A DNA stretch of 64,000 nt, taken from a virus (taxonomy: Duplodnaviria > Heunggongvirae > Uroviricota > Caudoviricetes). The stretch's first letter is position 1. The number at the start of each line of letters is the position of its first letter. The stretch covers positions 1 to 64,000 of the IMG/VR virus record IMGVR_UViG_3300037258_000931; one strand, given 5' to 3'. Of the stretch, positions 2,718-46,163 are shown in pieces. Both the position numbers and the translations under genes were made by a program. The notes under the pieces were generated by a model. It was given only the letters and a program-made list of their open reading frames with translations. It was not told the DNA's origin and did not search any database.

Positions 2718-2718
2718 A

Positions 2719-3349: not shown

Positions 3350-3457
3350 AAGCGGCTGAAGAAGCCAATCCGGACGGCATGGCGCATAGGGCCGTTCGGG
3401 CTAGGGGACACGGGGCGAGTGCGACGCAATCCGACTCCACCAAAATTTGAGTGTTAT

Positions 3458-3535: not shown

Positions 3536-3544
3536 GAAAAGCCG

Positions 3545-3706
3545 GAGATCAGTAGTCAGGGATCAGTTGTCAGGGGTCAGGGATCAGTTAGAAGCAAGAG
3601 CAAGAGCAAGAGCAACCGCGGGTCCTTCGGCTTCGGTCGCTTTGCTCCCTGCGCTCAGGATGACAGGTTTTTTCTGATCCCTGATCTCTGATCTCTGATC
3701 TCTGAT
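3545..3706. repeat. GGGATCAG-family element, full
   Basis: Left arm x5, canonical core, right arm x5. Confidence 0.85.
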
Positions 3707-3717
3707 ATTATGCGCGC

Positions 3718-4005
3718 ATGGGACTTTTCAACGACAGCGCGGAAGACGAGATCCGGCGGCTGCGCGCGATGATTGCCAGGCTGGAGCAGGAAAAAGGCGT
3801 TCGCCTGGTGACGGTGGAGATCCAGCGTAAGCCGGGATATGGGTACCTGTTTTACATCACCGCGCCGACTACGGCCAGCGAAGCGGAGTTCGGCATGGCG
3901 ATGGCGGAGACGATCGCCCGATCGTTCAAGGTGATTGGGGCGGATATGACGCCCGGGGACGTTTCGATGAATCAGGTGGCGCCGCCGAAAGGTGGGGTTC
4001 ATTGA
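3718..4005 (+). CDS. hypothetical protein
   Basis: 95 aa ORF starting right after a repeat element; coding-like composition. Confidence 0.35.
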   Translation: MGLFNDSAEDEIRRLRAMIARLEQEKGVRLVTVEIQRKPGYGYLFYITAPTTASEAEFGMAMAETIARSFKVIGADMTPGDVSMNQVAPPKGGVH

Positions 4006-4229
4006 CAGAAGACGAGGGGATGTCCATTGAGAGCGCCGAGCAGAAGCTGGTGGAAAAAGCCGTAGAGGCGGCCGACCGGATGATCTGTACTGAGGCGGCC
4101 AACGAAGACCGGCTGCTGTTGCTGACGCTGCGGGTAGGCGAAGCGTTTATGGCCAAGGTCCGGATGATGGTGGAGGCCAAGGTGCAGCGGGATATCTTTC
4201 TCCGTGAATTCAAGAAGACGGGGCTGTAG
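4002..4229 (+). CDS. hypothetical protein
   Basis: 75 aa; ATGA start/stop overlap with the preceding ORF (operon-like). Confidence 0.35.
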   Translation: MTEDEGMSIESAEQKLVEKAVEAADRMICTEAANEDRLLLLTLRVGEAFMAKVRMMVEAKVQRDIFLREFKKTGL

Positions 4230-4331
4230 CTCAGCCGGATAGAGCAGTTGGCAGAGCGGGGCCCACCGACAGGATTTTACCGGTGGGGCGGCAATCAGCA
4301 GGCCGGGGTTCGACTGCCTTCGGCCCCTCCA
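4220..4331 (+). tRNA. atypical tRNA-like gene (about 112 nt; tRNA ends with an about 35-nt internal insertion)
   Basis: Acceptor GGGGCTG/CGGCCCC plus T-CCA, canonical TAGCTCAGCCGGATAGAGC D-arm and GGTTCGACT T-loop-like segment, but the interior (4247-4300) contains an extra 7-bp hairpin CCCACCG...CGGTGGG; anticodon not assignable. Confidence 0.3.
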
Positions 4332-4349
4332 GATTTAGGGTGATCCGCC

Positions 4350-4544
4350 ATGGAAAAATCCGCGACAAAGAGACGACCAGGGCGGCCAGCGATGGCGAAG
4401 AAAAACCTGAAGTGGAGGTTCATCATTACCCGGGTTACCGCCGGGGAACGGCGTAGAATTCTTGAAGCCGCTCGGAGATCGCGCCGGAGCGTGTCGCAAT
4501 GGATACGCGAATCTCTGGAGAAGGCGATGGAGAGTGGTTTTTGA
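4350..4544 (+). CDS. ribbon-helix-helix (CopG/Arc-like) DNA-binding protein
   Basis: 64 aa; basic N-terminus then pattern T..E...I..AA...G.S.S..IRE typical of RHH domains. Confidence 0.45.
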   Translation: MEKSATKRRPGRPAMAKKNLKWRFIITRVTAGERRRILEAARRSRRSVSQWIRESLEKAMESGF

Positions 4545-4894
4545 CGCCTAGAATCTGTACGACCAGGACCTCTTTGCGGAATGGGTTCTATCCGTTGATG
4601 CAGGTATGCTGGACCGAGGACGCGGATGGGTTGGGCTGGACCGGCGACGCGGTATTTTGGACCGACGGGAATACCCGGGAGCCGCCCGATCACACCCTTT
4701 CTCTTCGCCAGGGAATGCCGTTGGGGTCAATCAGCCTGGCGGTGGATGAAATTTCGCACGGGGCCTGGGCCTATACTCATTTTGAGGGCGCGGGGCTGAC
4801 CGAGCGAGACCTGCAGTGGGCCGCGGCCTATGCTTCAGAGGCGTTGAAGCGGAAGCGGGAGCTCAGCCGAGCGGAAAGCGGCACTCTTGATTGA
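4499..4894 (+). CDS. hypothetical protein
   Basis: 131 aa ORF overlapping the end of the RHH gene; weak support. Confidence 0.25.
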   Translation: MDTRISGEGDGEWFLTPRICTTRTSLRNGFYPLMQVCWTEDADGLGWTGDAVFWTDGNTREPPDHTLSLRQGMPLGSISLAVDEISHGAWAYTHFEGAGLTERDLQWAAAYASEALKRKRELSRAESGTLD

Positions 4895-5255
4895 GTCGCT
4901 GCCCTGCGGGTCGTGCACGGCTCTGTGCTGCGGCCCGGTTTCTCTGTCTCGCGATCGGCTGGTAAAGATCGAGACCTATATTGCGCAGATGCCGGCGCCG
5001 GAGCGCAACCGGTTGAGGAGGCAGAAGCGCGGACCGCTGGATTGCGGTTTCCTGGACATGAGCAACCATCGCTGTGCCATCTATCCGGTGCGGCCATGGG
5101 TGTGCGAAGCCTTCGGACGTGTGGAGGGGATGCGGTGCCCGAAGGTTGCGAAGCTGGTGCAGATTATTCCCGCGTTTCTGGCCGACCAGGCGGTAAGGGA
5201 TGAGGGCGCGAGTGGGATCGTCGGCAACTCCGGCGAATATCTGTGGCGTAAATAA
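4887..5255 (+). CDS. YkgJ/UPF0153-like Cys-rich (CxxCxxCC) metal-chelating domain protein
   Basis: 122 aa; CGSCTALCC motif near the N-terminus plus additional Cys/His. Confidence 0.45.
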   Translation: MIESLPCGSCTALCCGPVSLSRDRLVKIETYIAQMPAPERNRLRRQKRGPLDCGFLDMSNHRCAIYPVRPWVCEAFGRVEGMRCPKVAKLVQIIPAFLADQAVRDEGASGIVGNSGEYLWRK

Positions 5256-5343
5256 TTCTGCGGGCGTGGACCGAAATGGGTGCAGGCTGCCTAAGTTGAG
5301 TTTGAGTTTCCGCGAGCTGGCCGAGTTGGAGGCAGTCTAACCG

Positions 5344-5371
5344 TTGACAAACCTTCCGCAACCGATATAAG
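5344..5371 (+). promoter_or_regulatory. sigma70-like promoter (TTGACA, 16 nt, TATAAG) in lower-GC spacer upstream of the tRNA-Trp/Met/Lys cluster
   Basis: Read directly: cgTTGACAaaccttccgcaaccgaTATAAGgtgg; followed by two GC-rich hairpins. Confidence 0.4.
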
Positions 5372-5568
5372 GTGGTTGCATTCGACGAGTGTGTTATGCA
5401 GATAAGATCCCTTAAACCCGTTCCCCCGATTGCCGGCGTCAGGATGAACCTGAAGCGGGTATGGGGAAGCGTGTCTTAGGGGTCTCGTCTGAGTTTTGGC
5501 TCGACCAGACCCCCGGCTCAGGCTGGGGGTTTCTGTTTCTAGATCTTTGACAATCGAAATTGCGTTAC

Positions 5569-5644
5569 AGGGGCGTAAGCTCAGCGGCTAAACTGTCGGT
5601 CTCCAAAACCGAACTCGGGGGTTCGAATCCCTCCGCCCCTGCCA
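5569..5644 (+). tRNA. tRNA-Trp (anticodon CCA)
   Basis: Acceptor AGGGGCG/CGCCCCT, anticodon stem TCGGT/ACCGA loop CTCCAAA, T-loop TTCGAAT, CCA. Confidence 0.65.
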
Positions 5645-5649
5645 TTTGT

Positions 5650-5725
5650 CGCGCCGTAGCTCAGTTGGCAGAGCAAGCGGCTCATAATCGCTAGGTCGGA
5701 CGTTCGATCCGTCCCGGCGCGACCA
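5650..5725 (+). tRNA. tRNA-Met (anticodon CAT; elongator vs initiator vs Ile2 not resolved)
   Basis: Acceptor CGCGCCG/CGGCGCG, TAGCTCAGTTGGCAGAGC, anticodon stem AGCGG/TCGCT loop CTCATAA, T-arm GGACG-TTCGATC-CGTCC, CCA. Confidence 0.7.
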
Positions 5726-5767
5726 GAATGCGCTGCGTAAGCGCAGCGGGTGCAGGTAGCAGAGTGT

Positions 5768-5843
5768 GCGGGCGTAGCTCAGTTGGCAGAGCAAGTGACT
5801 CTTAATCACGAGGTCGGGGGTTCGATGCCCTCCGCCCGCACCA
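5768..5843 (+). tRNA. tRNA-Lys (anticodon CTT)
   Basis: Acceptor GCGGGCG/CGCCCGC, anticodon stem AGTGA/TCACG loop CTCTTAA, T-arm GGGGG-TTCGATG-CCCTC, CCA. Confidence 0.7.
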
Positions 5844-5851
5844 GAAAAGCA

Positions 5852-6020
5852 GAGATCAGGTTTCAGGGATCAGTAGTCAGGGATCAGGGATCAGTTAGAA
5901 GCAACGGCAAAAGCAAAAGCAACCGCAGGTCCTTCGGCTCCCTCCGGTCGCTCAGGATGACAGTCGAGGCAAGGATGACAGGTTTTTTCTGATCCCTGAT
6001 CTCTGACCCCTGATCCCTGT
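5852..6020. repeat. GGGATCAG-family element, full
   Basis: Canonical arms; core with gcaaaagcaaaagcaa and duplicated aggatgaca box. Confidence 0.85.
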
Positions 6021-6032
6021 TATTATGCGGGC

Positions 6033-6416
6033 ATGAGCGAGGATGTACATCAGAGCGGGAGCGAACCGATTTCGGACCGGCTCTGTTTTGTCTTTCGCAA
6101 CCCCTTGGGGCGCTGGGTGATCGGCAATGTTCTCCGGCCGGGGCTGGCCTGGAGCGGATCGCGATGGGTGCCACACCACGACGGGCTGCCCGCGGGGGAC
6201 GCGCAGGTGTCGAACTGGGAGAGCAGAGAGGCCGCCTGGAAGGCGGCCGACGCGTTGCGGTTGGCGATTGCGCTGTTCGGCTGTCATGTGGACGACTTGA
6301 GCATCACCTGTTTTCAGTGCGGGCTGATCAGCTTCCATCCCGAGGATGTGCACAACCGGTATTGCGGGAACTGTCATGTATTTCACGGAGACGAGCCGAC
6401 TCAAGTGTACGGGTAG
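6033..6416 (+). CDS. hypothetical Cys/His-rich protein
   Basis: 127 aa; starts right after a repeat element; ITCFQCG...HNRYCGNCHVFH. Confidence 0.35.
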   Translation: MSEDVHQSGSEPISDRLCFVFRNPLGRWVIGNVLRPGLAWSGSRWVPHHDGLPAGDAQVSNWESREAAWKAADALRLAIALFGCHVDDLSITCFQCGLISFHPEDVHNRYCGNCHVFHGDEPTQVYG

Positions 6417-6454
6417 GGATATGGGTGAGTCTAGAAACTGGACTGGCAGACTTA

Positions 6455-6530
6455 GGGAGCGTCGCATAGCGGCAACTGCACTCGACTTTTAATCGAAAAG
6501 ACGTGGGTTCAAATCCCACCGCTCCCACCA
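6455..6530 (+). tRNA. tRNA-Lys (anticodon TTT)
   Basis: Acceptor GGGAGCG/CGCTCCC, anticodon loop CTTTTAA between TCGA stems, T-arm GTGGG-TTCAAAT-CCCAC, CCA. Confidence 0.65.
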
Positions 6531-6536
6531 GGAAGG

Positions 6537-6751
6537 CAGGGGTCAGGGATCAGGGATCAGTTAAGTGCAACGGCAAAAGCAAAGGCAACCGCGGGTCCTT
6601 CGGCTCCCTCCGGTCGCTCAGGATGACAGCTCTGGGGCAGGTCGCTCGGGATGACAGCTTTTTGCTGGTCCCTGACCCCTGACCCGTGATCCCTGATCCC
6701 CGACCCCTGATCTCTGATCGCTGATCCCTGATCTCTGATCGCTGATCCCTG
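6537..6751. repeat. GGGATCAG-family element, full, extended right arm
   Basis: Core variant with gctcaggatgacagctctggggcaggtcgctcgggatgacagc; right arm about 10 units. Confidence 0.85.
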
Positions 6752-6755
6752 TTTT

Positions 6756-6832
6756 GGCCCCGTAGCTCAGGCGGATAGAGCAGTCGTTTCCTAAACGATT
6801 TGTCGGGAGTTCGAATCTTCCCGGGGCCACCA
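6756..6832 (+). tRNA. tRNA-Arg (anticodon CCT)
   Basis: Acceptor GGCCCCG/CGGGGCC, TAGCTCAGGCGGATAGAGC, anticodon stem GTCGT/ACGAT loop TTCCTAA, T-loop TTCGAAT, CCA. Confidence 0.65.
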
Positions 6833-6871
6833 GTTCTGTCGCCCGCTCTAAGGGGGCAGGCACCGGTTTCG

Positions 6872-6947
6872 GCGCGCGTAGCTCAAGCGGATAGAGTGCT
6901 GGCCTCCGAAGCCAGGGATTGCAGTTCGAGTCTGCACGCGCGCACCA
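6872..6947 (+). tRNA. tRNA-Arg (anticodon CCG)
   Basis: Acceptor GCGCGCG/CGCGCGC, anticodon stem CTGGC/GCCAG loop CTCCGAA, T-arm TGCAG-TTCGAGT-CTGCA, CCA. Confidence 0.7.
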
Positions 6948-6970
6948 TAAATGCTCTAGGATGGAGAGCT

Positions 6971-7159
6971 ATGATTGAGATTGTGTATTTGCGAAAGAAC
7001 CGGAAGGGTGAGGTTGTCTCCATGCGCCAGGGCCACTGGGAAAGCTGGCAGCAGATGATGGGCGAAGTCCAGAGGGCCGTCGACGGCGAGATAAAAAAGA
7101 CCTCAAGCGCAGTTAGAAAAAGCACAGTTAAAAAGCGAAGCTCAAAAAAGCGGAGTTAA
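6971..7159 (+). CDS. small lysine-rich hypothetical protein
   Basis: 62 aa after tRNA-Arg(CCG); basic C-terminal tail KKRSSKKRS. Confidence 0.3.
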   Translation: MIEIVYLRKNRKGEVVSMRQGHWESWQQMMGEVQRAVDGEIKKTSSAVRKSTVKKRSSKKRS

Positions 7160-7225
7160 TTCAGCGGCTAGAATGCTTGTCCTACACACAAGACGTCGGG
7201 GGTTCGAGTCCCTCACTCCGCACCA
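7150..7225 (+). tRNA. tRNA-Val (anticodon TAC)
   Basis: Acceptor GCGGAGT/ACTCCGC, anticodon stem CTTGT/ACAAG loop CCTACAC (C at position 33), T-loop TTCGAGT, CCA. Confidence 0.6.
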
Positions 7226-7237
7226 ATTCTGTTGTCG

Positions 7238-7290
7238 AGTTTCAGGGGTCAGTTGTCAGGGGTCAGTGGAAGCGAGAGCAAGAGCGCTCA
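7238..7290. repeat. GGGATCAG-family partial (left arm plus core start)
   Basis: gtttcaggggtcagttgtcaggggtcag...agcgagagcaagagc; lies just upstream of the 7300 GTG start. Confidence 0.6.
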
Positions 7291-7299
7291 GAGGGAGAC

Positions 7300-7503
7300 G
7301 TGATCTTGAAAGACGTTTATCTAGGGGACGGCCTGTATGCTCACTTTGACGGCTACCAGATTGAGTTGTATGCGTTCAACGGGGTAGGCAAGACGGCCAG
7401 CGTGTTTCTGGAACCGGCAGTGCTGAAGAGTTTTCTGGCGTACGTCGAAGACTTGAAGCGCCGGATTGCGGCCGACCCGGCGGGAAGTTTTTTGCAGCAG
7501 TGA
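7300..7503 (+). CDS. small hypothetical protein
   Basis: GTG start preceded by GAGGGAG; 67 aa. Confidence 0.35.
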   Translation: MILKDVYLGDGLYAHFDGYQIELYAFNGVGKTASVFLEPAVLKSFLAYVEDLKRRIAADPAGSFLQQ

Positions 7504-7510
7504 TTCACGA

Positions 7511-7585
7511 GCCGGTATAGCTCAAGCGCAGAGCACTCGACCGATAATCGAGAGGTTGCAGCCTCAGAAGCTGCTACCGGCACCA
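7511..7585 (+). tRNA. tRNA-Ile (anticodon GAT)
   Basis: Acceptor GCCGGTA/TACCGGC, anticodon stem CTCGA/TCGAG loop CCGATAA (C33), T-arm GCAGC-CTCAGAA-GCTGC, CCA. Confidence 0.6.
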
Positions 7586-7601
7586 GGTTTATAATGCTTT
7601 C

Positions 7602-7937
7602 ATGCTCTGGGAAGTAAGCGTCGAAGGGTCGCTCGTAAGCTATGGAGAAGATGAGGATGGCCGGGCGATTCCGTGTTTGTCTGAAGACACGATTGCGTTC
7701 ATCGAAGAGGGTCGAGACCTGATCGAGATCATGATGCTGGTGCAGGCGAAACTGGATGTTTTGAACGGAAAGCTCAAGCAAAAATATCCAGACCTGTACA
7801 AGGACGACCTGGACTGGGAGTACAAGATCGTGGGGATCGGGAGAACCGATCTGGTTCGCTTCGATGACCGGTGGATAGAGGAATTTGTGGACAAGGAAGT
7901 GATGACCTGGAACAGCAATGAGGAAGAAAATTCCTAA
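7602..7937 (+). CDS. hypothetical acidic protein (lower-GC segment)
   Basis: 111 aa; region 7.6-8.45 kb is visibly more AT-rich than its surroundings. Confidence 0.4.
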   Translation: MLWEVSVEGSLVSYGEDEDGRAIPCLSEDTIAFIEEGRDLIEIMMLVQAKLDVLNGKLKQKYPDLYKDDLDWEYKIVGIGRTDLVRFDDRWIEEFVDKEVMTWNSNEEENS

Positions 7938-8012
7938 GCGAGCGTGGTATAGCGGCTGGTGCCCTGGGCCTCCAACCCAGAGACGCGGGTTCGACTCCCG
8001 CCGCTCGCTCCA
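7938..8012 (+). tRNA. tRNA-Gly (anticodon TCC)
   Basis: Acceptor GCGAGCG/CGCTCGC, anticodon stem CTGGG/CCCAG loop CCTCCAA (C33), T-arm GCGGG-TTCGACT-CCCGC, CCA. Confidence 0.6.
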
Positions 8013-8027
8013 TCATTCGAGGTAGGG

Positions 8028-8405
8028 ATGACAAACAAACGCGCTCCTTCTGTATCGAGTTGGCATGATATCCCGGACTCGGTTGTAGATGAGTTTAGTA
8101 AAAAGGTTCGGCAGCTTCAGCGAGAGATGATTCCGCTCGATGGCGATGGAGATATAGCTGTCGAGATAATCATTGTCGACCGGAGGAAGTTTGAGCCACT
8201 TCACTTCCAACCTATACCCTATAACCACCCGCCTTACGGAACGAAATGGACGCCAGAAGAAGAGGCTGCTGTCCATGAGGAGCGATTGCGCTGGCTATCC
8301 TGCAACGCGGATATGGCAAATCGTTCGCTTGAGACTTTTCTGTCTCTGGAACTATATCGCCTGGCTTCTGAGCGTGAAAAAGGTGCCAAAAACTTTCAAA
8401 AATAG
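8028..8405 (+). CDS. hypothetical protein (lower-GC segment)
   Basis: ATG right after tRNA-Gly; 125 aa. Confidence 0.4.
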   Translation: MTNKRAPSVSSWHDIPDSVVDEFSKKVRQLQREMIPLDGDGDIAVEIIIVDRRKFEPLHFQPIPYNHPPYGTKWTPEEEAAVHEERLRWLSCNADMANRSLETFLSLELYRLASEREKGAKNFQK

Positions 8406-8645
8406 CGCGCATGATTTTACATAGGACTATGATATAGTCGTTTTCACGTGCCAGTTCTCCGCTTGAAAACCCCGCGTACCATCCCCCGCCTGCAACTCTC
8501 TCCTTCTTTCCCCAATCTGCCTCGCAAGCTGGCCCCCGGGCCGGGAGGAATCCCGGCCGCGTGTTTCCAAAGCAACAATTTGCGCCCGTGGGCCGCAAAG
8601 GGGTAGACTCGGCTTCGATTCCAAGTTCTATTTTGAGGAGCAACG

Positions 8646-9407
8646 ATGACCAAGATGCATGAGCTGCTGGCCGTACAGACGAACCTGAACGGCCAGGCAA
8701 CCAAGACCCGCACCGGCTTGATGGACACCTTCAGAACCAAGCGGCACCTGTTTGAGAAGAAGGTGAAGGCGTTTCAGCCTCTCGGCGAAGGCGCCGACCT
8801 GACCATCGAAGAGCAGTCCGATATCCAGACCACGGTGCCTAAGGAGATCGAGTGGCTGAAGGGCCACCTGGTGAAACAAATCGATGTGGGTTTGCGCGTA
8901 GACGTGGGCAACCGGATCGCCGAGGCTGACGTGGTGGACGAAGAAGACACCAAGATCCTGGCCAAAATGCCGGCCACCACGCTGCTGTGGCTGGAAAAAC
9001 GGGTGCAGGAGGTAAAGGAGCTGATCGAGGCCATTCACACCCTGGACCCGGCCAAGGGATTTACCGAGGACCGGGATGCGGGCGTGGGGTACTGGAAGGC
9101 GCGCGAAGTGAAGAAGGAGCGCACCAAGAAAAAGAAAGTGGTGATCGTGAAGTACGACGCTGTGGATAAGCACCCGGCGCAGACCGAGCTGGTGGACGAG
9201 GACGTGGTGGTAGGCACGATTCGCGAGCAGGAGTGGAGCGCGCTGATCACGCCGGCGATGAAAGCGGAGCTGTTGAACCGGGCGGAGATGCTGATTCGGG
9301 CGGTGGCCAAGGCTCGCTCCAAGGCCAACGAGCAGGAAGTGGACATCAAGGACGCCAAGATCGGAGACGTGCTGCTTGACTACGTCTTCAAGCCTCTGCT
9401 AGGGTAA
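8646..9407 (+). CDS. hypothetical protein
   Basis: 253 aa; upstream promoter-like TTGCGC..17..TAGACT and RBS GGAGGAG; charged, coiled-coil-like composition. Confidence 0.45.
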   Translation: MTKMHELLAVQTNLNGQATKTRTGLMDTFRTKRHLFEKKVKAFQPLGEGADLTIEEQSDIQTTVPKEIEWLKGHLVKQIDVGLRVDVGNRIAEADVVDEEDTKILAKMPATTLLWLEKRVQEVKELIEAIHTLDPAKGFTEDRDAGVGYWKAREVKKERTKKKKVVIVKYDAVDKHPAQTELVDEDVVVGTIREQEWSALITPAMKAELLNRAEMLIRAVAKARSKANEQEVDIKDAKIGDVLLDYVFKPLLG

Positions 9408-9558
9408 TCGCGGGTGGGGTCGGCCTTGACCGGCCGGCCCGATTCCAGGTTAAGGCTGAGGCTGAGATTCAGCGGACGCGCGAGCGCGAGCGTGAGGCTC
9501 AGGTTGACACCCCAGGCTTATCGCGGAGAACGATAGCTCGACAGACGAGACTCTTTTT

Positions 9559-9595
9559 ACGGTGGTCGTCGGTTCGAATCCGGCGGGAGCCCCCA
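9559..9595 (+). tRNA. orphan tRNA 3' half (anticodon-stem 3' strand, variable loop, T-arm, acceptor 3' strand, CCA)
   Basis: ACGGT-GGTC-GTCGG-TTCGAAT-CCGGC-GGGAGCC-C-CCA; no matching 5' half upstream; perfectly complementary to the 5' half found 11 nt downstream. Confidence 0.3.
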
Positions 9596-9605
9596 AAATA
9601 TTCAT

Positions 9606-9642
9606 GGCTCCCTAGCTCAGCGGTAGAGCAGCCGTCTCAGGT
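9606..9642 (+). tRNA. orphan tRNA 5' half (acceptor 5' strand, D-arm, anticodon-stem 5' strand and loop)
   Basis: GGCTCCC-TA-GCTC-AGCGGT-AGAGC-A-GCCGT-CTCAGGT; no T-arm or acceptor 3' strand downstream; GGCTCCC pairs with GGGAGCC of the upstream 3' half; candidate anticodon CAG (Leu) if the loop is CTCAGGT. Confidence 0.3.
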
Positions 9643-9683
9643 TAAAAGTTTCGGGTTGAAGAGCGAGGCGTTGCCGCACCGTA

Positions 9684-9757
9684 CTTGAGATAGCTCAGAT
9701 TGGTAGAGCATTCGACTTGTAATCGAAGGGTCTCTGGTTCAAATCCAGATCTCAAAC
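9684..9757 (+). tRNA. tRNA-Thr-like (anticodon TGT), C1:A72 mismatch, no encoded CCA
   Basis: Acceptor CTTGAGA/TCTCAAA (terminal C-A mismatch), TAGCTCAGATTGGTAGAGC, anticodon stem TTCGA/TCGAA loop CTTGTAA, T-arm TCTGG-TTCAAAT-CCAGA. Confidence 0.45.
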
Positions 9758-12195: not shown

Positions 12196-13052
12196 TGCCT
12201 GACAACAAGACTATGGTCTGGACGGCGCGGCTTGGGGGCGGTCTCCAGCCGGCCGCCCAGGGTGTGCAGGCGGCGGGGACGGCCCGGGTGCTTTACGCGG
12301 GCAATCAAGCTGGTTGCAATCTAGCTGGTTCTGGCCTGACTGGTTCTAGCCTGACTGGTACTGACGCAACTGTTTTTGCTGTAACCGGAGGATCGGCGAG
12401 TATGAATTACTCGGAGCCAGTGGTTTGGTATGACGGGTGTCGGGCGCCAAAAATCGCCAATAAATATGCCTATGCGCAATGGTGCACGAGTTTGGGCTAC
12501 CTGAATCAGACGCCCAGCAGCTTGTGGGCCAGCAAGCCGTGGCACTGGTATACGGGGACGACGCAGAGTGACTCGATGGCATGGTCTGTTCTGCCGTCCA
12601 CTTCAGTGCCTCCATTCTATGTGAACACGCTCATCGACGCGCCTCTGGAAACCGAGGCACAGAAGGCAGAGCGGCAGCAGCGGCTGGACAAGCTGCGCGA
12701 AGCGGAGCGGGCGGCTGAGCTGCGCGCGGAAGAGGTTTTGCTGATGTGCCTGAATCCGGTGCAGGAAATGGAGTACAGGCAGCACGGCTGTTTCCATTTG
12801 CAGGTGAATGAGCGGCGCTATCGGATCAATAAAGGACGTACGGGCAACGTGGAGCTGATTCACGAAGGGCTGCCGGTCTATCGTTACTGCGCGCATCCGG
12901 ATCTGTGGACGCCGGACCAGGACGTAATGCTGGCGCAGATGTTGATGCTGCAGACCGACGAGAAACGGTTTCTGGCAACCGCCAATCGGACGGTGCTGAC
13001 GCGAAACCTGCCGGCATCAGGGAACGATGAATTACTGGAGCTGGCCGCATGA
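12195..13052 (+). CDS. hypothetical protein
   Basis: ATG at 12195 overlapping the upstream stop (TGATG); 285 aa; contains short tandem nt repeat encoding LAGSGLTGSSLTG. Confidence 0.4.
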   Translation: MPDNKTMVWTARLGGGLQPAAQGVQAAGTARVLYAGNQAGCNLAGSGLTGSSLTGTDATVFAVTGGSASMNYSEPVVWYDGCRAPKIANKYAYAQWCTSLGYLNQTPSSLWASKPWHWYTGTTQSDSMAWSVLPSTSVPPFYVNTLIDAPLETEAQKAERQQRLDKLREAERAAELRAEEVLLMCLNPVQEMEYRQHGCFHLQVNERRYRINKGRTGNVELIHEGLPVYRYCAHPDLWTPDQDVMLAQMLMLQTDEKRFLATANRTVLTRNLPASGNDELLELAA

Positions 13053-13348
13053 GCGACGAGAGCGAAAAGACGGGCCATTTTTGGGTCAACGGGGTGGTCG
13101 CCCAGCGCGACGAAAAGCCCTATGTGCAGCTTTCCAATGAGAAGGGCATGGTGGCTCAGTTCTCGATCAGCGAGGCACGGCAGGTGGCCATGGATATCCT
13201 GCAGATGAGTGCCCGCACGGAAGCCGACGCGATGATTCTGAAGTTTTTCAAAAAGGCGGAACTCCCGATGGGGGCCGCGGCGGCGCTGATGGCCGAGTTT
13301 CGGGATTTTCGGGCCGAACTGGATGCCGAGGAGGCGGAGCGGACATGA
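13049..13348 (+). CDS. hypothetical protein
   Basis: 99 aa; ATGA overlap with the upstream ORF; immediately upstream of the cas12-like gene. Confidence 0.35.
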   Translation: MSDESEKTGHFWVNGVVAQRDEKPYVQLSNEKGMVAQFSISEARQVAMDILQMSARTEADAMILKFFKKAELPMGAAAALMAEFRDFRAELDAEEAERT

Positions 13349-13449: not shown

Positions 13450-15687
13450 ATGATTGAGCGGTTGACGGTGGGCAAAGATGGCGCGGTGGAAGTGCATCTG
13501 ACTGGCATCTCTTTGCAGGCGACCAAGGCGTTTACGCATGGCACGCTGGGGTTCGATCTTCAGGCGCGCACCGTGACTTTCGGCAAGCTGGCGCCGGTGG
13601 CGCTCCCCGCAGAACTGCAGCCGTCGGCGGGCGCCGCAGTGCATTTGCGGCTGCTGGGCCCGGATGGAGAGCTGCGCAAGCAGACGCGATCTGGAACGTG
13701 GACGGCGGTGGGCAAGCAGCCGCATCTTTTGCGCATCGGCGGCCACGCGCAGACGGCGCGCAAGTTCCCGGCCGAGGAGGGCTGGAGCAACCGGACGTAC
13801 AAGTATCGCGCGTACTTCAGCCATCCCGGGGCCGAGACCGATGGGGAACTGCCGGAGTGGCTGCGCGGGTCGATCGCGCGGCAGCGGGCGTACTGGAATC
13901 GCCTGGCATGGCTGTGCCGGGATGCGCGCCGCAAGTGCTCGACGGAGTCTCCAGAGCAAGTGGCGGAGTTTGTAGGTCAAGTGATTGTGCCGGCGATCGA
14001 TGCGTTTAACGAGGCGATCGGGCCGGATCGGCGTCGCGCCAAGGAGCGGCTCAAGCATCCGCAGAAGCTGAAGGACCGGCCCGGGATCGACGGGTTGTGG
14101 GCCTTTGCCGGGCTGCTGCGCGCCTGGGAGGGGAAGGGGCATCCGGTTCCCGAGGGGCTGATGGACCGGGTGCTCGCGTTTGCCAAACAGTTCCAGCCCG
14201 ATTACGCTCCGCTGAACGAGTTTATGCGAGATCTGAGCCAGATTGCGGCGGCGGAGGCCGAGCGGCTGGAGCTGAAATGGTTCGAGGTGCGGCCGGAGCT
14301 GAGCAGCTTCAAAGCCACCCTTGACCGTCGCAGGACTGTGCAGGCGTCCTGGTCGGACGGCTGGCCGATGCTACGTTTTGCGCAGCTCGGGAAGGATCTC
14401 GACTGGGGGCTGCATTACTACCTCAGGAAGGCTGGGGTGGGCACGGAGTTACTGGAGACCGGCAAAGGGGTGCCGGGGCTCAGTCTCGGGGCGCCGCTGA
14501 GCCACGCTGAAACCGGCCATCCTCACCTTTGTGGGGCGGCGGCCAAGCGGGCGCTGCGCGAGGCCCGGATTTCGATTCCTGGGGAAGGGAAAGACCGCTG
14601 GATCTTCCGGTTTGCGGTGCTGGAACATCGGCCGCTGCCGGCCCATGCGCATGTGAAGGAGTGGAAGCTGGTGTTCAAGGGAGGCGAGCTGTGGCTGTGC
14701 CTGGTGGTGGAGATGCAGCAGCCGCTGCCGGAGCCCAGCGCCCAGGCCGCGGGGCTGGATATCGGCTGGCGGCGGACGGCGGAGGGCATTCGCTTCGGGA
14801 CTCTCTACGAGCCGTTGGCGGGGACGGTGCGGCTGCTGGAGATGGATTTCGGGCGCTCGCCGCGCGATCCTGCCGACAGGGTACCGTTCCGGATCGATCT
14901 GGGACCGAGCCGGTGGCAGAAGCGCAACCAGAAACGGCTGTTTCCGGAGCCGGTGGCTGAGGGGGAGAGCGCGGCGGCGCGCCCGCATGACGGGGCGGAA
15001 GTGCCAGGGCTTTTAGAGACTGGGATTCAACTGCAGACGCGGCGCGACTACGAGAAGGATACGGTGAAGATTCTGCTGCGGCGGTATCTGGGAGAACGAA
15101 CTCCGCCGTGGCTGGACAGGGCCGGACTCTCGGGATTGCGCAGGCTGCGGGAAGAGTTGAAAGACGATGCCGGCGCGTGGGCTATTTTAGAGGCGTGGCG
15201 GTTGAAGGACGACGAGATTGGGGCATTGACCGCTTTTTATTTTGCGCGCTCGACGCGGCGCATCGAGTACGGGCATCTGCAGGTGGCGCACGATGTCTGC
15301 CGGCACCTGCGCGACCAGGGAGTATCCCGGTTGGCAGTGGAAACCAGTTTTCTAGCCAAGCTGGCGCAGAACCAGAGCAGTGAGGTCCCGGTAGCCCTGA
15401 AGCGTTCGCAGAAATACCGGCAGGTTGCGGCACTGGGAAAGTTTGTGGCCGTGCTCCGGAATACGGCGATCAAGTACGGCGTGGCCGTGGATGAGCATGA
15501 CGCGGCCAATACAACCCGGATCTGCCGGTACTGCAACCATCTGAATGAGGCGACAGAGCGGGAGAAGTACAACTGCGCGGCCTGCGGCCGGGAGCTGAAG
15601 CAGGATGAAAATGCGGCGGTGAACCTGTCGCGGTTCGCGGCCGATCCGGAGCTTGCGGAGATGGCGTTGCAGGCGGGGAGGAAGTGA
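13450..15687 (+). CDS. cas12: Cas12/TnpB-family RuvC nuclease (745 aa), putative type V CRISPR effector
   Basis: The C-terminal third carries RuvC-I (AAGLDIGWRR, about aa 436), RuvC-II (RLAVETSF, about aa 629), a CxxC...CxxC zinc finger (CRYCNH...CAACG) and RuvC-III (DENAAVNL, about aa 718), in the order typical of Cas12/TnpB; a CRISPR array starts 56 nt downstream. Confidence 0.75.
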   Translation: MIERLTVGKDGAVEVHLTGISLQATKAFTHGTLGFDLQARTVTFGKLAPVALPAELQPSAGAAVHLRLLGPDGELRKQTRSGTWTAVGKQPHLLRIGGHAQTARKFPAEEGWSNRTYKYRAYFSHPGAETDGELPEWLRGSIARQRAYWNRLAWLCRDARRKCSTESPEQVAEFVGQVIVPAIDAFNEAIGPDRRRAKERLKHPQKLKDRPGIDGLWAFAGLLRAWEGKGHPVPEGLMDRVLAFAKQFQPDYAPLNEFMRDLSQIAAAEAERLELKWFEVRPELSSFKATLDRRRTVQASWSDGWPMLRFAQLGKDLDWGLHYYLRKAGVGTELLETGKGVPGLSLGAPLSHAETGHPHLCGAAAKRALREARISIPGEGKDRWIFRFAVLEHRPLPAHAHVKEWKLVFKGGELWLCLVVEMQQPLPEPSAQAAGLDIGWRRTAEGIRFGTLYEPLAGTVRLLEMDFGRSPRDPADRVPFRIDLGPSRWQKRNQKRLFPEPVAEGESAAARPHDGAEVPGLLETGIQLQTRRDYEKDTVKILLRRYLGERTPPWLDRAGLSGLRRLREELKDDAGAWAILEAWRLKDDEIGALTAFYFARSTRRIEYGHLQVAHDVCRHLRDQGVSRLAVETSFLAKLAQNQSSEVPVALKRSQKYRQVAALGKFVAVLRNTAIKYGVAVDEHDAANTTRICRYCNHLNEATEREKYNCAACGRELKQDENAAVNLSRFAADPELAEMALQAGRK

Positions 15688-15743
15688 AGCGCATCGGACC
15701 AGTGCAACAGATTTAGTCTCTACCGATTTCGCGGGGCGCAGTC

Positions 15744-16933
15744 GTCGCAACCGAGTTTGAGTGCACTGGGTAAGTGCAACCGGCGCCTTCACTCAGTCTT
15801 GCCTGCGCGGCAGACGTCGCCACGGGGCCAAGTGCACTGGGTAAGTGCAACGTGATGTTGTTCGTCATTTGGGCCTCGCCTCTTCCGTCGCAACGGGGTC
15901 CAAGTGCACTGCGTAAGTGCAACAATTTGGCTCGTACGTTCCACCCGAGGCAATCCGGTCGCAACCAGGACAAAGTGCACTGCGCAAGTGCAACTGCGAT
16001 TGTCTTCGCTAATGACTGTCAACAGCGCGTCACAACGGGAACCAAGTGCACTGAGCAAGTGCAACAGCTATACCTAAACTTTAGTGTCAAGCAAATGGAG
16101 TCGCAACGGGGTCCAAGTGCACTGAGTAAGTGCAACCTTATTGGCTGTCATGGAAGCACGCCGGAGGTTTAAGTCGAAACCGGGACCAAGTGCGCTGCGT
16201 AAGTGCAACGTTCCCCTCCAGCGTGTGAACACAAATTCGTGCGTCGCAACAAGGACGTAGTGCACTGGGCAAGTGCAACCGCAACCCTGGTGTTTATTGA
16301 ACCGCCGTTTGCCGTCGTCGCAACGGGCAAGTAGTGCGCTGAGTAAGTGCAACTCTACAGGACAGACGCGCAAGCTGAAGTCTGGCGGGTCGCAACGGGC
16401 GCCAAGTGCACTGGGCAAGTGCAACCTTGCACCGCCGCGCTATATGCCGCTCCAATACGTCGCAACGGGGTCCATGTGCACTGGATAAGTGCAACTTTTG
16501 CTTGGCACCGCAGAAAGCCCAAATCTCGTCGTCGCAACGGGGACCAAGTGCACTGAGTAAGTGCAACCACCATGTTATCGCAGGTTCTCGCCATACCGAT
16601 CAGTCGCAACGGGCGCCAAGTGCACTGGGCAAGTGCAACTTTGCCCCTTCGACTCGTACACGGTTGAGGTCGTGCCGCAACGGGGTCTAAGTGCACTGGA
16701 TAAGTGCAACGACTCCCCCACTCGCCGCCAGACCAATGTAATCTATCGTCGCAACGGGCGCCAAGTGCACTGGGCAAGTGCAACTCAAGTGAAATGGAAC
16801 AGCGAGCTATATCACTAGGTCGCGACGGCCGCGAAGTGCACTGGGTAAGTGCAACACCTAACCGCTGCGCCTATGCGGAAATTTAGAGTCGTCGCAACCG
16901 GAACGTAGTGTGCCGCGGAGGCGCAACTTTGCG
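15744..16933 (+). CRISPR. CRISPR array, about 17-18 repeats of 36-37 nt (consensus GTCGCAACGGGGTCCAAGTGCACTGGGTAAGTGCAAC) with unique 31-37 nt spacers
   Basis: Repeats share a 5' GTCGCAAC and 3' AGTGCACTGGGTAAGTGCAAC (hairpin TGCAC/GTGCA) but differ in the central about 9 nt; terminal repeats degenerate; an extra truncated repeat fragment (CCAGTGCAAC, 15700-15709) overlaps the cas12 stop region. Confidence 0.8.
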
Positions 16934-17344
16934 AGTTCGAAGTCGCCGCCGTTATGCCGGGCGGCCGTCTGCATGCAACGGCCGATTCAGGAGAACGCAT
17001 TGATCCGATTGATCCGATCGATCGATTGCTCGACCCGTCTGGCCAGATCGAGCCGCCCCATTTTTATGCAGAATCTATGCGCCTTTTGGGGAATGTCGAA
17101 AGATCCTTGCGACCGGTTGGCGGTATTTGTGGCGTTCGGCGCGCGCGGCGCCAACGCATGGCTGGATAAAGTAAAAATCTCCAACTCCGATGTGCACCTG
17201 CGATGGGCGCTGGTGCTTTACCGGATGCTGAACCATATTGCGAGGTTCGATGTGCTGCAGGAACCGCTGGGCGGCCTTAAAGAGACCCATCAGCTTTACA
17301 GGCGGCTGAAAGGCATTCTCGATCCCAACGGAAAACTTCGCTGA
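16910..17344 (+). CDS. hypothetical protein (true start probably downstream, near 17066)
   Basis: 144-aa ORF beginning inside the degenerate array end; the C-terminal half has normal composition. Confidence 0.25.
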   Translation: MPRRRNFASSKSPPLCRAAVCMQRPIQENALIRLIRSIDCSTRLARSSRPIFMQNLCAFWGMSKDPCDRLAVFVAFGARGANAWLDKVKISNSDVHLRWALVLYRMLNHIARFDVLQEPLGGLKETHQLYRRLKGILDPNGKLR

Positions 17345-17361: not shown

Positions 17362-17646
17362 TCACGGTTGCTTCTTCGGCCTTCCTCCATGGTACTCGGC
17401 GCGAGGATGGGACTTTTTGGCCAGCTTGGAAAAGTAGTCGGTGCCCTTTTTACGGGCCAGCTTCTGGCCGGCCAGTTTGGCGATCTTGGAATAAAATTCC
17501 GGATCGGCTTTGGTCAACTTTTCCGGTTCCCGTTTCTTGGGCTTATTGAGTTGAGTCACGCGCGCAGTATGGAGAATATCCGGCTGCGTGTCTAGTGCAA
17601 TTTTAGAGTTGACGCCGGACCAAAAGGGGGCTATCAGTGGAACCAC
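17362..17646 (-). CDS. possible KGG-repeat stress-protein-like small protein
   Basis: C-terminal DPEFYSKIAKLAGQKLARKKGTDYFSKLAKK resembles KGG-repeat stress-protein motifs; lone leftward gene; start uncertain (GTG near 17563 possible). Confidence 0.3.
   Translation of the reverse strand: MVPLIAPFWSGVNSKIALDTQPDILHTARVTQLNKPKKREPEKLTKADPEFYSKIAKLAGQKLARKKGTDYFSKLAKKSHPRAEYHGGRPKKQP
17609..17637 (+). promoter_or_regulatory. candidate promoter for the erf operon (TTGACG, 17 nt, TATCAG)
   Basis: Read directly 40 nt upstream of the ERF start codon. Confidence 0.3.
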
Positions 17647-45753: not shown

Positions 45754-46001
45754 GCGACGATCGGCTGCAGGACCTTGAACTCTACGCCTGGGTGGGCGAA
45801 GATGAGTTCGGCAGCGGCGCGGTTGGGTTGAAGCAAGGCGTGGTGCCCGCTGGGACCATTCCCATGGTGGCCATCGAGCGGGAGAAGCTGGACCGGTACT
45901 GGGCAAACGCGGAGCGGCAAGCCGCGGCCTTTGGCAAGCGAATCTCGCTGGTGCGATTCAGGGCGGTAGAAGTGGTGAGGCGGACGGCTGCGGGGGACTA
46001 A
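45750..46001 (+). CDS. small hypothetical protein whose stop codon abuts the mini CRISPR array
   Basis: GTG overlapping the upstream stop (GTGA); 83 aa; TAA at 45999-46001. Confidence 0.3.
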   Translation: MSDDRLQDLELYAWVGEDEFGSGAVGLKQGVVPAGTIPMVAIEREKLDRYWANAERQAAAFGKRISLVRFRAVEVVRRTAAGD

Positions 46002-46163
46002 GTGCACTGGGCAAGTGCAACTCAACGGAGGCAGGTTTGCCCTCTTCGGCAAGCGTTGCAACGAAGACAAAGTGCGCTGGAGAAGTGCAACAGTTCATGG
46101 TGATATGAATTGCGGGCGAAGGCGGGGTTGCAACCAGCTCCGAGCGCACTACGCGCGTGCAAT
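46000..46163 (+). CRISPR. mini CRISPR array (3 repeats / 2 spacers) of the same repeat family, first and last repeats degenerate
   Basis: AAGTGCACTGGGCAAGTGCAAC (46000-46021), GTTGCAACGAAGACAAAGTGCGCTGGAGAAGTGCAAC (46055-46091), GTTGCAACCAGCTCCGAGCGCACTACGCGCGTGCAAT (46127-46163); spacers 31 and 34 nt. Confidence 0.55.

Follow-up and report, generated by a model that had tools for sequence, protein, structure and literature searches.

We analysed a 64-kb window, which is part of a 132.7-kb contig. An intact open reading frame encoding a protein of 745 aa was found exactly where the earlier note had placed it, and its stop codon is separated by 56 nt from the first full repeat of a CRISPR array. 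A mini-array built from the same repeat family lies approximately 30 kb away. The positions of all features are summarized in Table 1.

Table 1 Features of the type V locus and of the mini-array in the 64-kb window.
Feature	Position	Strand	Remark
Effector gene, 745 aa, Cas12m-related type V protein	13450..15687	+	ATG start
N-terminal domain (aa 1-108), without a counterpart in Cas12m	13450..13773	+	
RuvC-I codon, D437 (GLDIGWRR)	14758..14760	+	Aligns with the Cas12m G-x-D-x-G-W-R motif
RuvC-II codon, E631 (LAVETSF)	15340..15342	+	Aligned to the Cas12m RuvC-II position
Zinc ribbon (TNB) CxxC...CxxC, C692/C695/C709/C712	15523..15585	+	Pfam PF07282, E 1.4e-10
RuvC-III codon, D719 (QDENAAVNL)	15604..15606	+	Aligned with D-x-N-A-A-x-N of Cas12m and TnpB
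Degenerate repeat 0, overlapping the effector stop codon	15672..15708	+	72 nt upstream of repeat 1, in register
CRISPR array with 17 repeats (36-37 nt; consensus GTCGCAACGGGGNCCAAGTGCACTGGGTAAGTGCAAC) and 16 unique spacers (33-37 nt)	15744..16927	+	
Mini-array, same repeat family as the main array, 2 spacers	45985..46163	+	Pattern search and sequence
Mini-array repeat A	45985-46021	+	Degenerate 5' end; overlaps the end of the upstream ORF
Mini-array first spacer	46022-46054	+	
Mini-array repeat B	46055-46091	+	Also found by PWM-plus-hairpin scan at 46055
Mini-array second spacer	46092-46126	+	
Mini-array repeat C, degenerate	46127-46163	+	

The effector consists of a family-specific N-terminal domain followed by a Cas12m-like body (aa 109-745) with the order WED-REC-WED-RuvC-TNB(Zn)-RuvC. 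The N-terminal domain has an alpha/beta fold, which matched no known fold, and carries the conserved motif K23-x-T25-K26-x-x-T29-H30-G31. The RuvC and zinc-ribbon motifs were located where the earlier note had reported them and in the TnpB/Cas12-like order that it described, and D437, E631, and D719 aligned to Cas12m. In an alignment of 51 family members, the column of D437 contained aspartate in 35 and glutamate in 14, that of E631 contained glutamate in 50, and that of D719 contained aspartate in 48; each of the zinc-ribbon cysteines was kept in 49-50 members. Structural matches to the RuvC domains of both Cas12 and TnpB were obtained with the effector RuvC. Thus, the protein has the split RuvC (D-E-D), interrupted by a zinc ribbon/TNB on the C-terminal side, that is general to type V effectors.

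In the main array, 16 repeats are 37 nt and one is 36 nt in length, with a period of 70-74 nt. The 17 full repeats and repeat 0 agree with the previous estimate of about 18. The 3' half of repeat 0, AAGCGCATCGGACCAGTGCAAC, resembles the array repeat and is followed by a spacer-like stretch of 35 nt (15709-15743); its weakened hairpin does not correspond to the MFE fold. The last repeat of the array is also degenerate in sequence, with its hairpin kept via compensatory changes. The 3' half of the repeat (AGTGCNCTGNNNAAGTGCAAC) occurred 18 times in the window, versus 0 expected from shuffles, and a search for the repeat pattern outside the main array yielded two perfect matches, versus 0 expected. 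The mini-array keeps the same conserved repeat core. Neither a sigma-70-like promoter nor a leader was found near the main array.

A hairpin directly 5' of each spacer had been suggested previously, and the pairing of repeat positions 19-24 with 30-35 was indeed the MFE fold. The 37-nt repeat forms a 6-bp stem and a 5-nt loop, followed by AC immediately 5' of the spacer. The hairpin was 100% paired across 13 related arrays and five of its six pairs showed compensatory changes on both sides, a level of covariation reached by none of 500 shuffles; its thermodynamic stability was unexceptional (z about 0). A covariance model produced 378 hits, which had the same orientation as the effector except in one lineage. 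These hits and the G-U pairs fix the transcribed strand. Positions 17-21 and 32-37 were nearly invariant among 220 distinct family repeats, in which only the simple hairpin covaried and no covariation indicative of a pseudoknot, as in Cas12m crRNAs, was detected. No candidate for an anti-repeat or tracrRNA was found in the window.

The surrounding genes are phage-like, as noted before: 17 tRNAs, ERF, a PD-(D/E)XK nuclease, an integrase, SSB, a sliding clamp, a primase-helicase, and HNH are present. No virion proteins were detected among the ORFs scanned in the window; thus, the element may be a plasmid or a phage-plasmid rather than a phage. The reported absence of cas1, cas2, and cas4 from the 64 kb was confirmed, as tblastn with the family's own Cas1, Cas2, and Cas4 gave no match and the PADLOC models detected no such Cas proteins among the 80 window ORFs. 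The window therefore carries, within a phage-like element, a genuine minimal type V locus that is made up of an effector and an array and is devoid of adaptation genes.

The effector belongs to a family of 92 homologous clusters with 40-62% identity and a length of approximately 730-770 aa, of which 61 representatives were collected at E<=1e-30. Peat or bog metagenomes were the source of nearly all clusters. Where relatives carry an organism name at all, it is that of an Acidobacteriota MAG; these names belong to the relatives and not to this element. In 23 of 35 distinct family loci, an array was located at most 4.5 kb downstream of the effector gene, which is the recurrent adjacency to a unique-spacer array general to type V systems. 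In four of the 35, cas4-cas1-cas2 was located between the effector and the array, and the effectors of these close relatives were 51-59% identical to that of the window. Hence, the lack of acquisition genes claimed for this minimal locus holds for the present copy but is not an inherent trait of the system. The gene order (DUF7873 ... orf99 - effector - [cas4-cas1-cas2 in some relatives] - array - orf94 - ERF - PD-(D/E)XK - integrase - primase) was kept across family loci, including the adaptation-positive ones, and the effector holds this fixed syntenic place in phage-like elements, several of which lie on contigs of about 130 kb.

Cas12m (subtype V-M, formerly V-U1) was the first-ranked relative of the effector by all methods used. 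The best four Foldseek matches were all Cas12m, a PDB profile search matched Cas12m with an E-value of 1.9e-19, and the PADLOC Cas12u1 model matched with an E-value of 1.5e-29. Using hhalign, residues 109-732 were aligned with positions 5-569 of a Cas12m-like profile (probability 100%, E 1.5e-54, 529 columns); the homology is collinear across the whole length of Cas12m from aa 109 onward. The earlier note recognised no match for the N-terminal 430 aa; this holds for residues 1-108 but not for residues 109-430, which this profile-profile alignment assigns to the WED/REC region of Cas12m. We compared the effector with MmCas12m2, GoCas12m, MsCas12m, and PmCas12m (PDB 8hhl, 8pm4, 23vw, 23vu); its identity to Cas12m was 16-25%, and about 19-25% for the body (aa 109-745). 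The effector is best regarded as an uncharacterised protein that is distantly related to Cas12m and larger than it, rather than as Cas12j, and "divergent or undescribed Cas12 subtype" is still a fair description of it.

These results raise the question of whether the effector is simply an ordinary V-M member, that is, a long variant of the characterised family that silences its targets by binding without cutting. Every method ranks Cas12m first, the 5' motif, length, and 3' end of the repeat fit Cas12m repeats, and no tracrRNA candidate was found; location on a mobile element is usual for V-M (PMC11656645), and the D-E-D triad is also retained in Cas12m clades 3 and 4 (PMC10442227). The catalytic constraint may be relaxed, as hinted by the D-to-E change at RuvC-I in 14 of the 51 aligned family members. 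However, the curated Cas12u1 (V-U1) HMM used by PADLOC/CCTyper was not matched over its whole length: the effector scored 101 bits at model positions 212-530 of 533, whereas P0165, a bona fide Cas12m representative, scored 226 bits at positions 3-529. Membership in V-M proper is doubtful because of this partial match. Low identity also weighs against it, as does size, since Cas12m proteins are approximately 540-610 aa and start directly at the WED strand, whereas the 745-aa effector has 108 extra residues at the N-terminus. V-M has been described as associated with arrays and no other cas genes (PMC10691335), which is true of the window locus but not of the family, and the Cas12m-type pseudoknot did not covary in the repeat. 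We therefore consider ordinary V-M membership unlikely.

We searched for targets of the spacers. Comparison of the window spacers with phage and plasmid databases, a check proposed in the earlier note, yielded zero protospacers. Exact searches of IMG/VR with window spacers 1 and 2 and the first mini-array spacer gave no match, and neither did a comparison of 244 distinct family spacers with the family loci. Spacer 1 of a relative (L068) was identical at 37 of 37 positions to an IMG/VR contig (L100), with TTC as the 5' flank; this contig is that of a tailed phage and encodes TerL (3.8e-157), a portal protein, and a head protease. The candidate 5'-TTC PAM is thus derived from a single protospacer of an adaptation-competent relative, not from the window locus.

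The repeats of the main array were heterogeneous, with 13 distinct sequences among the 15 scored and a mean pairwise identity of 0.84. The variation was concentrated at positions 9-16 and 26-28, and positions 17-25 and 29-37 were invariant. Other adaptation-less arrays were likewise strongly diverged (19 of 19 repeats distinct in both L001 and L041), whereas two of the three adaptation-positive arrays scored had identical repeats (11/11 and 22/22) and the third had four variants in 14. Diverged arrays had spacers in common that carried point mutations and adjoined mutated repeats. The repeats have diverged except at RNA-relevant positions, indicating that they represent a long-inherited, selected guide set that is not actively adapting. 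The window arrays no longer acquire spacers.

The same heterogeneity might be expected of a decaying relic that has lost its adaptation genes and whose repeats are degenerating in non-functional arrays, and the degenerate first and last repeats, the lack of a detected promoter, and the absence of targets for any window spacer in the databases searched are compatible with this. We regard such decay as improbable, because the ORF is intact with all catalytic and zinc residues present, the divergence in the window array spares positions 17-25 and 29-37, and the terminal repeat keeps its hairpin through compensatory substitutions. In addition, the same pattern of divergence occurs in many independent adaptation-less arrays, and the conserved core is also kept in the mini-array 30 kb away.

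The earlier note had likened the effector to Cas12j (CasPhi), a class of hypercompact phage nucleases. Its size, the phage-like context, the lack of adaptation genes in this copy, and the lack of a tracrRNA are similar to those of Cas12j, and the start that the note gave for the Cas12j repeat was accurate: the 36-nt Cas12j-2 repeat starts with GTCGGAACG (PMC11048056), compared with GTCGCAACG for the effector-associated repeat. However, the latter shares 5' GUNGCAAYG, a length of 36-37 nt, and 3' ...AC with the Cas12m repeats (Ms/Tf/Un/Ap), a better match than that with Cas12j-2. Cas12m was closer to the effector by Foldseek, PDB profile, PADLOC, and hhalign; no relationship to Cas12j was detectable in the sequence and PDB profile searches, and the structural match was far weaker than those to Cas12m, Cas12f, or TnpB. 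Membership in Cas12j was therefore rejected and is effectively refuted. It is scarcely credible that the effector is an IS200/IS605-type TnpB beside unrelated repeats or omega-RNA-derived debris, as it scored far below the curated NCBIfam cut-offs (guided_TnpB, 43 vs 100 bits; IS607_TnpB, 26 vs 350; IS200_TnpB, 20 vs 425), is twice the size of TnpB, and holds a fixed syntenic place, with no transposase seen, rather than occurring as scattered copies, and as the family has adjoining unique-spacer arrays in 23 of 35 loci, cas4-cas1-cas2 in four, and a perfect phage protospacer for one relative's spacer.

Thus, the locus probably represents an uncharacterised type V system in a copy that lacks adaptation genes, carried by a phage-like element and with a single effector that is an enlarged protein distantly related to Cas12m. 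The array would be transcribed on the + strand, probably by read-through of the effector mRNA, given the overlap of repeat 0 with the stop codon and the lack of a detected promoter or leader. Covariation shows that each repeat forms the hairpin, with AC after it, immediately 5' of the spacer. By analogy with Cas12m, and given that no anti-repeat was found, the effector may need no tracrRNA to bind this 5' handle and may trim the pre-crRNA. As suggested by the one relative's spacer, the complex may recognise double-stranded DNA of competing phages at a 5'-TTC-type PAM. It would then either use its acidic RuvC triad to cleave the target or bind tightly and block transcription or replication, as Cas12m does; the two outcomes appear about equally probable, and the sequence cannot decide between them because D-E-D variants of Cas12m also fail to cut (PMC11013384).

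Among known systems, Cas12m is the best neighbour of the effector in sequence, profile, and structure. Both have the WED-REC-RuvC-TNB zinc-ribbon architecture, 36-37-nt repeats that start with GUNGCAAYG and end with AC, no apparent tracrRNA, a T-rich or C-rich 5' PAM (for the family a candidate, the TTC seen once, for a relative's spacer), a location on mobile elements, and, in Cas12m clades 3 and 4, the D-E-D triad. Unlike Cas12m, the effector has the additional 108-aa domain, family relatives encode cas4-cas1-cas2, and the repeat is a simple hairpin without covariation for the Cas12m pseudoknot/triplex. Cas12j (V-J) of huge phages resembles the locus in its single 700-800-aa effector and compact array in a phage-like genome, and in the lack of adaptation genes and tracrRNA in the window copy, but those phages exceed 200 kb and have no adaptation module, in contrast to the present contig and the adaptation-positive relatives. 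TnpB of IS200/IS605, a protein of about 350-450 aa, uses an omega-RNA, whereas the window effector is paired with a unique-spacer CRISPR array and lacks transposon features. MvCas12m of myxophage MV-1 (610 aa) was reported as the first phage-encoded Cas12m (bioRxiv 10.64898/2026.09.14.751636). It is similarly a virus-borne Cas12m-type effector beside an array, without cas1/2/4 or a tracrRNA, with the RuvC D-E-D triad kept and spacer targets not found; however, it is of canonical size and comes from a single phage, whereas the present effector belongs to a large separate clade of 720-770-aa proteins with an extra domain, found on dozens of peat contigs. The main array and the 2-spacer mini-array at 46 kb are also reminiscent of virus-borne mini-arrays and adaptation-less viral CRISPR-Cas systems (PMC11656645), with which a family relative shares documented inter-virus targeting. 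Classical viral mini-arrays borrow host Cas proteins and have repeats identical to those of the host, whereas the mini-array at 46 kb uses the element's own effector-specific repeat.

The 745-aa effector carries the RuvC motifs GLDIGWRR (D437), LAVETSF (E631), and QDENAAVNL (D719) and the zinc-ribbon cysteines C692, C695, C709, and C712, just as the earlier note had read them. In an alignment of 51 family members, the catalytic columns held D in 35 and E in 14 sequences (RuvC-I), E in 50, and D in 48, and the zinc cysteines were kept in 49-50. In these 14 members (27%), Glu stands in place of Asp at residue 437; for RuvC nucleases that are active this is unusual, and it may hint at catalysis that is relaxed or altered.

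Curated libraries recognized the C-terminal part alone. Pfam matched Cas12f1-like_TNB at aa 663-726, every NCBIfam TnpB and Cas12 model scored far below its cut-off, and the top named PADLOC model was Cas12u1 (V-U1, equal to Cas12m; E = 1.5e-29, aa 364-730). Among PDB sequences, the best matches to the single-sequence query were Cas12m chains, UnCas12m4a 23vu (4e-9) and 23vw (8e-8). With the family profile as query, 23vw reached 1.9e-19 over three collinear stretches, and Cas12m2 (2.5e-7) and GoCas12m (7e-7) matched more weakly. An AlphaFold model predicted from the family alignment was rated good (pLDDT 85.5, pTM 0.71), and its top four Foldseek matches in the PDB were Cas12m structures (8hhl, 9.8e-21; 8pm4, 1e-17), followed by Cas12f (3e-12) and Cas12o1 (2e-10). 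We also aligned the family profile using hhalign with a Cas12m/V-U1-like profile of 30 representatives, including P0165, which matched the Cas12u1 model over its full length (226 bits). The alignment (probability 100%, E = 1.5e-54, 529 columns) paired window effector residues 109-732 with Cas12m profile positions 5-569. By these comparisons, the effector is judged homologous to Cas12m along the entire Cas12m length.

Two other identities were rejected. TnpB or an IS element is dismissed by the NCBIfam scores and by the conserved syntenic position of the gene. Cas12j, which the earlier note had brought up, is dismissed because no Cas12j chain was among the PDB sequence or profile matches and CasPhi-2 ranked only 47th by structure (7.5e-6); the Cas12j-2 repeat does begin as given there (GTCGGAACG).

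A large protein collection held 92 family clusters of 40-62% identity, nearly all of 720-770 aa, with public annotations of hypothetical, transposase, or zinc-ribbon protein. An exhaustive representative search yielded 61 proteins at E<=1e-30, after which the list graded into Cas12m-like proteins of 500-690 aa. Related loci were collected from IMG/VR (7), GTDB genomes (6), and JGI metagenomes (79). All six GTDB loci were in Acidobacteriota MAGs (Terracidiphilus, Acidobacteriaceae, and one 476-kb contig), the JGI loci came almost exclusively from peat or bog samples, and GenBank phages gave no tblastn match to the effector. De-replication at 97% nucleotide identity left 35 distinct loci with at least 700 nt 3' of the effector gene, 23 of which had an array within 4.5 kb downstream.

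The gene order DUF7873 ... orf99 - effector - array - orf94 was kept in many loci, followed by ERF or RecT, PD-(D/E)XK, orf237, integrase, primosomal protein, and primase-helicase. The neighbor genes orf94 and orf99 flank the CRISPR locus in nearly every related locus, and orf99, located about 100 nt from the effector gene in the window and 0.7-1 kb away in most relatives, is more strongly conserved than the effector. Pfam detected no families in orf94, orf99, or the flanks of a second, small array (mini-array). The two ORFs may have an accessory or regulatory role. The most divergent full-length relative (L017, 42% identity) is on a 211-kb contig, where the effector gene lies directly 3' of a PRTRC-like cassette (PRTRC_E, Prok_Ub, Prok-E2_D, ThiF) and 5' of SSB and DnaB, a context more plasmid- or ICE-like than phage-like.

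Four independent effector-bearing contigs were 129.4-130.2 kb long, compared with 132.7 kb for the contig that contains the window. Because the independent contigs converge in size, an element, or complete genomes, of about 130 kb is suggested. The window also contains a cluster of 17 tRNA genes, a typical feature of large phages; an Rfam scan found tRNAs only. No virion proteins were detected among the ORFs scanned in the 64-kb window; the element is phage-like, a putative phage.

Coordinates of features in the window and in related loci
Feature	Sequence	Position	Strand	Remarks
tRNA cluster	window	196-9757	+	Thr x4, Pro x2, Lys x2, Arg x2; His, Ala, Phe, Trp, Met, Val, Gly once each; small ORFs in between
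orf99	window	13049-13348	+	5' of effector; 71-84% identity across loci
Effector gene	window	13450-15687	+	745-aa product
RuvC-I residue 437	window	14758-14760		
Repeat 0	window	15672-15708		degenerate, over effector stop codon
Main array	window	15744-16927		17 repeats (16 x 37 nt, 1 x 36 nt)
orf94	window	17362-17646	-	directly 3' of array, convergent with it; 50-83% identity across loci
Mini-array	window	45985-46163	+	same repeat family; two full spacers, 33 and 35 nt
Effector and context	L017	5091-8898		
Leader inverted repeat	L017	12210-12245		
Leader inverted repeat	L031	7305-7350		
Leader inverted repeat	L068	12160-12290		
Inverted array	L021	10299-10549		
Duplicated repeat-spacer unit	L005	14825-14968		
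Half repeats	L010	12300-12460		
Distant relative	L007	11065-11607		
Protospacer	L100	2548-2584	-	37/37 match

The main array has a period of 70-74 nt and 16 spacers, all unique and 33-37 nt long; the earlier count of about 18 repeats is reached if the in-register repeat 0 is included. The conserved 3' half of the repeat occurred 18 times in the window versus 0 expected. Two of these occurrences, at 46001-46091, revealed the mini-array, which was absent from the earlier note. It lies 30 kb from the effector gene; the first of its repeats lies over the point where an upstream ORF ends, and the last one is degenerate. Neither spacer matched anything.

We analyzed the repeat RNA using a gap-free alignment of 13 array consensus sequences. 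Positions 19-24 paired with 30-35 in 100% of cells, and five of the six pairs varied on both sides, which was reached by none of 500 shuffles; slid hairpin controls paired in only 20-49% of cells. The transcribed strand is the + strand, as G-U pairs occur on it. The 378 repeats that a covariance model detected came from 66 sources and ran in the effector's direction everywhere but in the L021/L022/L069 lineage. The arrays of this lineage (L021, L022, L025, and L069) are inverted relative to the effector gene. Among 220 distinct repeats, positions 17-21 and 32-37 were almost invariant and positions 10-16 and 26-28 nearly free, and mutual information supported the hairpin plus a G25/A29 loop-closing pair. 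Support for the hairpin comes from covariation and not from energy, because its thermodynamic z-score was about 0. The anti-repeat (tracrRNA) search gave matches of 8-10 nt at most, and the promoter and terminator scan around the locus was at or below shuffled expectation. The leaders of several related arrays share an inverted repeat, CGCGAACCTC...GAGGTTCGCG, just 3' of the preceding gene (CGCTAACCTC/GAGGTTAGCG in L068). A conserved hairpin occurs there in relatives whose leader is 150-250 nt long, but not in the window, with its 56-nt gap.

Neither tblastn for Cas1, Cas2, and Cas4 with the family's own proteins nor PADLOC for Cas proteins among the 80 window ORFs gave a match. This agrees with the earlier note, which had found no cas1, cas2, or cas4, and the nuclease at 19.4 kb is a generic PD-(D/E)XK protein adjoining ERF. 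Four distinct relatives (L005/L033, L006/L075, L068, and L078) encode Cas4 (211 aa), Cas1 (346 aa), and Cas2 (96 aa) between the effector gene and the array, with Pfam E-values of 6.5e-23, 2.1e-95, and 2.2e-23, respectively. Their effectors are 51-59% identical to that of the window, and the syntenic context is identical. V-M has been described as associated with arrays but without other cas genes (Altae-Tran et al. 2023, PMC10691335); the family departs from this description because four relatives carry cas4-cas1-cas2.

Repeats of the adaptation-positive arrays were all identical in L005 (11 of 11) and L068 (22 of 22), and L006 had four variants among 14. In the adaptation-less arrays, 13 of 15 repeats were distinct in the window (mean identity 0.84), as were 19 of 19 in both L001 and L041 (mean identity 0.76 in L041). 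Variation in the window array was restricted to repeat positions 9-16 and 26-28, and the terminal repeat retained the hairpin via compensatory substitutions. Of the eight spacers common to L020 and L066, half carry one mismatch, and the repeats beside these eight differ at 0-5 positions; one identical spacer is common to L001 and L045, with 6 differing positions in the adjoining repeats. Since drift tracks the missing adaptation genes and diverged arrays share spacers, we infer that acquisition ended in the distant past in the adaptation-less arrays, which selection on RNA-critical positions now maintains. On the 476-kb Acidobacteria MAG contig (L010), merely three half repeats are left, with the spacing shortened to 59-65 nt. 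They share the 3' hairpin GTGGCTC..GAGTCAAC and have unrelated 5' halves; this may be a decayed array within an integrated copy. In the adaptation-competent L005 array, one repeat-spacer unit is exactly duplicated, giving two identical consecutive spacers.

We searched for spacer targets. The whole array, compared in distant mode with GenBank phages and PLSDB plasmids, gave no protospacer, the sole match being a chance one of 51 nt (E = 0.3). Exact scans of an IMG/VR collection from which the window's own contig was absent gave no match to spacer 1 (24 nt), spacer 2 (22 nt), or mini-array spacer 1 (22 nt). No self- or cross-targeting was found among the related loci collected, where matches were chance ones of 12-16 nt, and spacers 2 and 3 of L068 and spacer 1 of L005 recovered their own arrays only. 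The leader-proximal spacer of L068 matched IMGVR_UViG_3300048040_000027 (L100) over its full length. This contig is a tailed-phage fragment (TerL, 3.8e-157; portal, head protease, and replication initiator), and the protospacer covers the start codon of a 98-aa ORF. This single protospacer, of a spacer from an adaptation-competent relative, indicates that the family may target other phages. The sequence 5' of it, ...GTCG-TTC, suggests, as one observation from that relative, a 5'-TTC (TTN-like) PAM.

The functional statements on this locus are predictions. Since repeat 0 lies over the stop codon and the array region yielded no sigma-70-like promoter, the array would be co-transcribed with the effector gene. 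The effector itself would process the pre-crRNA, and DNA recognition would be PAM-dependent. The effector may also be catalytic, in DNA cleavage or RNA processing, as conservation of the acidic triad in the family would suggest. However, Cas12m variants bearing D-E-D leave DNA uncut (PMC11013384), Cas12m2 with D-E-D restored did not recover cleavage (PMC10442227), and RuvC-I is Glu in 27% of the family; the predicted activity could go either way.

One joint reading, offered tentatively and somewhat improbable as a whole, is that the family forms a distinct unnamed type V subtype. It would descend from Cas12m/V-U1, to which a new N-terminal domain and a Cas4-Cas1-Cas2 module of its own were added, and would reside at one fixed site in phage-like elements linked to Acidobacteriota, several of them on contigs near 130 kb in length. 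Window-type guide sets would be vertically inherited, with selection keeping the spacers and RNA-critical repeat positions and the remainder of the repeat drifting by 15-25%. The adaptation-less arrays would then be hard-wired guides, and the effector a repressor or weapon, programmable and possibly non-cutting, against specific competitors or host functions, not adaptive immunity.

The family adds a populated yet unannotated branch to the TnpB-to-Cas12 series, with a Cas12m-like core, an accreted, new N-terminal domain, and an adaptation module captured in some lineages. Because V-M proper is reported without such a module, the family is a natural comparison for minimal type V systems turning fully adaptive, or reverting. 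One syntenic element family holds both adaptation-positive arrays, whose repeats are mostly identical, and adaptation-negative ones, whose repeats drift while their RNA-critical positions stay conserved, and thus provides an unusually clean natural experiment on arrays after acquisition stops. The 745-aa, single-RNA effector is a candidate compact editing or silencing tool because of its intact acidic triad, likely TTC PAM, and simple hairpin handle.

We compared the family with known systems. Its repeats share the 5' GUNGCAAYG, the 36-37-nt length, and the 3' AC with published Cas12m crRNAs (Bigelyte et al., SI Table S5), whose repeats are GUAGCAACGCCUAGCUCAGGGGCUCGAAAACUGAGAC (MsCas12m), GUUGCAAUGCC...CUGAGAC (TfCas12m), and GUGACAAAGCCC...GCUGCGAC (ApCas12m). 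The family consensus opens with GTAGCAAC, exactly as the MsCas12m repeat does. Cas12m repeats carry an additional pairing segment forming a pseudoknot, whereas mutual information in the 220 family repeats gave no pseudoknot signal. The system is predicted to work like type V-M; the family differs from V-M in its partial match to the curated V-U1 model, in its larger size and extra domain, in the adaptation modules of relatives, and possibly in this repeat. The 2025 classification notes about 50 independent origins of type V from TnpB and many V-U variants without a name (PMC12669027), and the family could be among V-U6 to V-U45. We found no published description of it in the literature. A study of huge phages in glacier-foreland soil placed Cas12 proteins of about 700 aa with proximal arrays near 'Cas14u/Cas12f', using no Cas12m references; these proteins may be related to the family. 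A distant relative on an IMG/VR contig (L007) matches query residues 362-726 only, at 32% identity. Its array repeat, GTGACAACCCCCGCGGAACGGGGAAGAAGTTCCGAC, has CCCC/GGGG and GGAAC/GTTCC segments that interleave as in the Cas12m pseudoknot and resembles the published ApCas12m repeat, so that L007 looks like a further virus-borne classical Cas12m. A September 2026 preprint (bioRxiv 10.64898/2026.09.14.751636) claims the first phage Cas12m, of 610 aa. The present family bears on this 'first', since viral-like contigs from peat soils apparently often carry Cas12m-type effectors.
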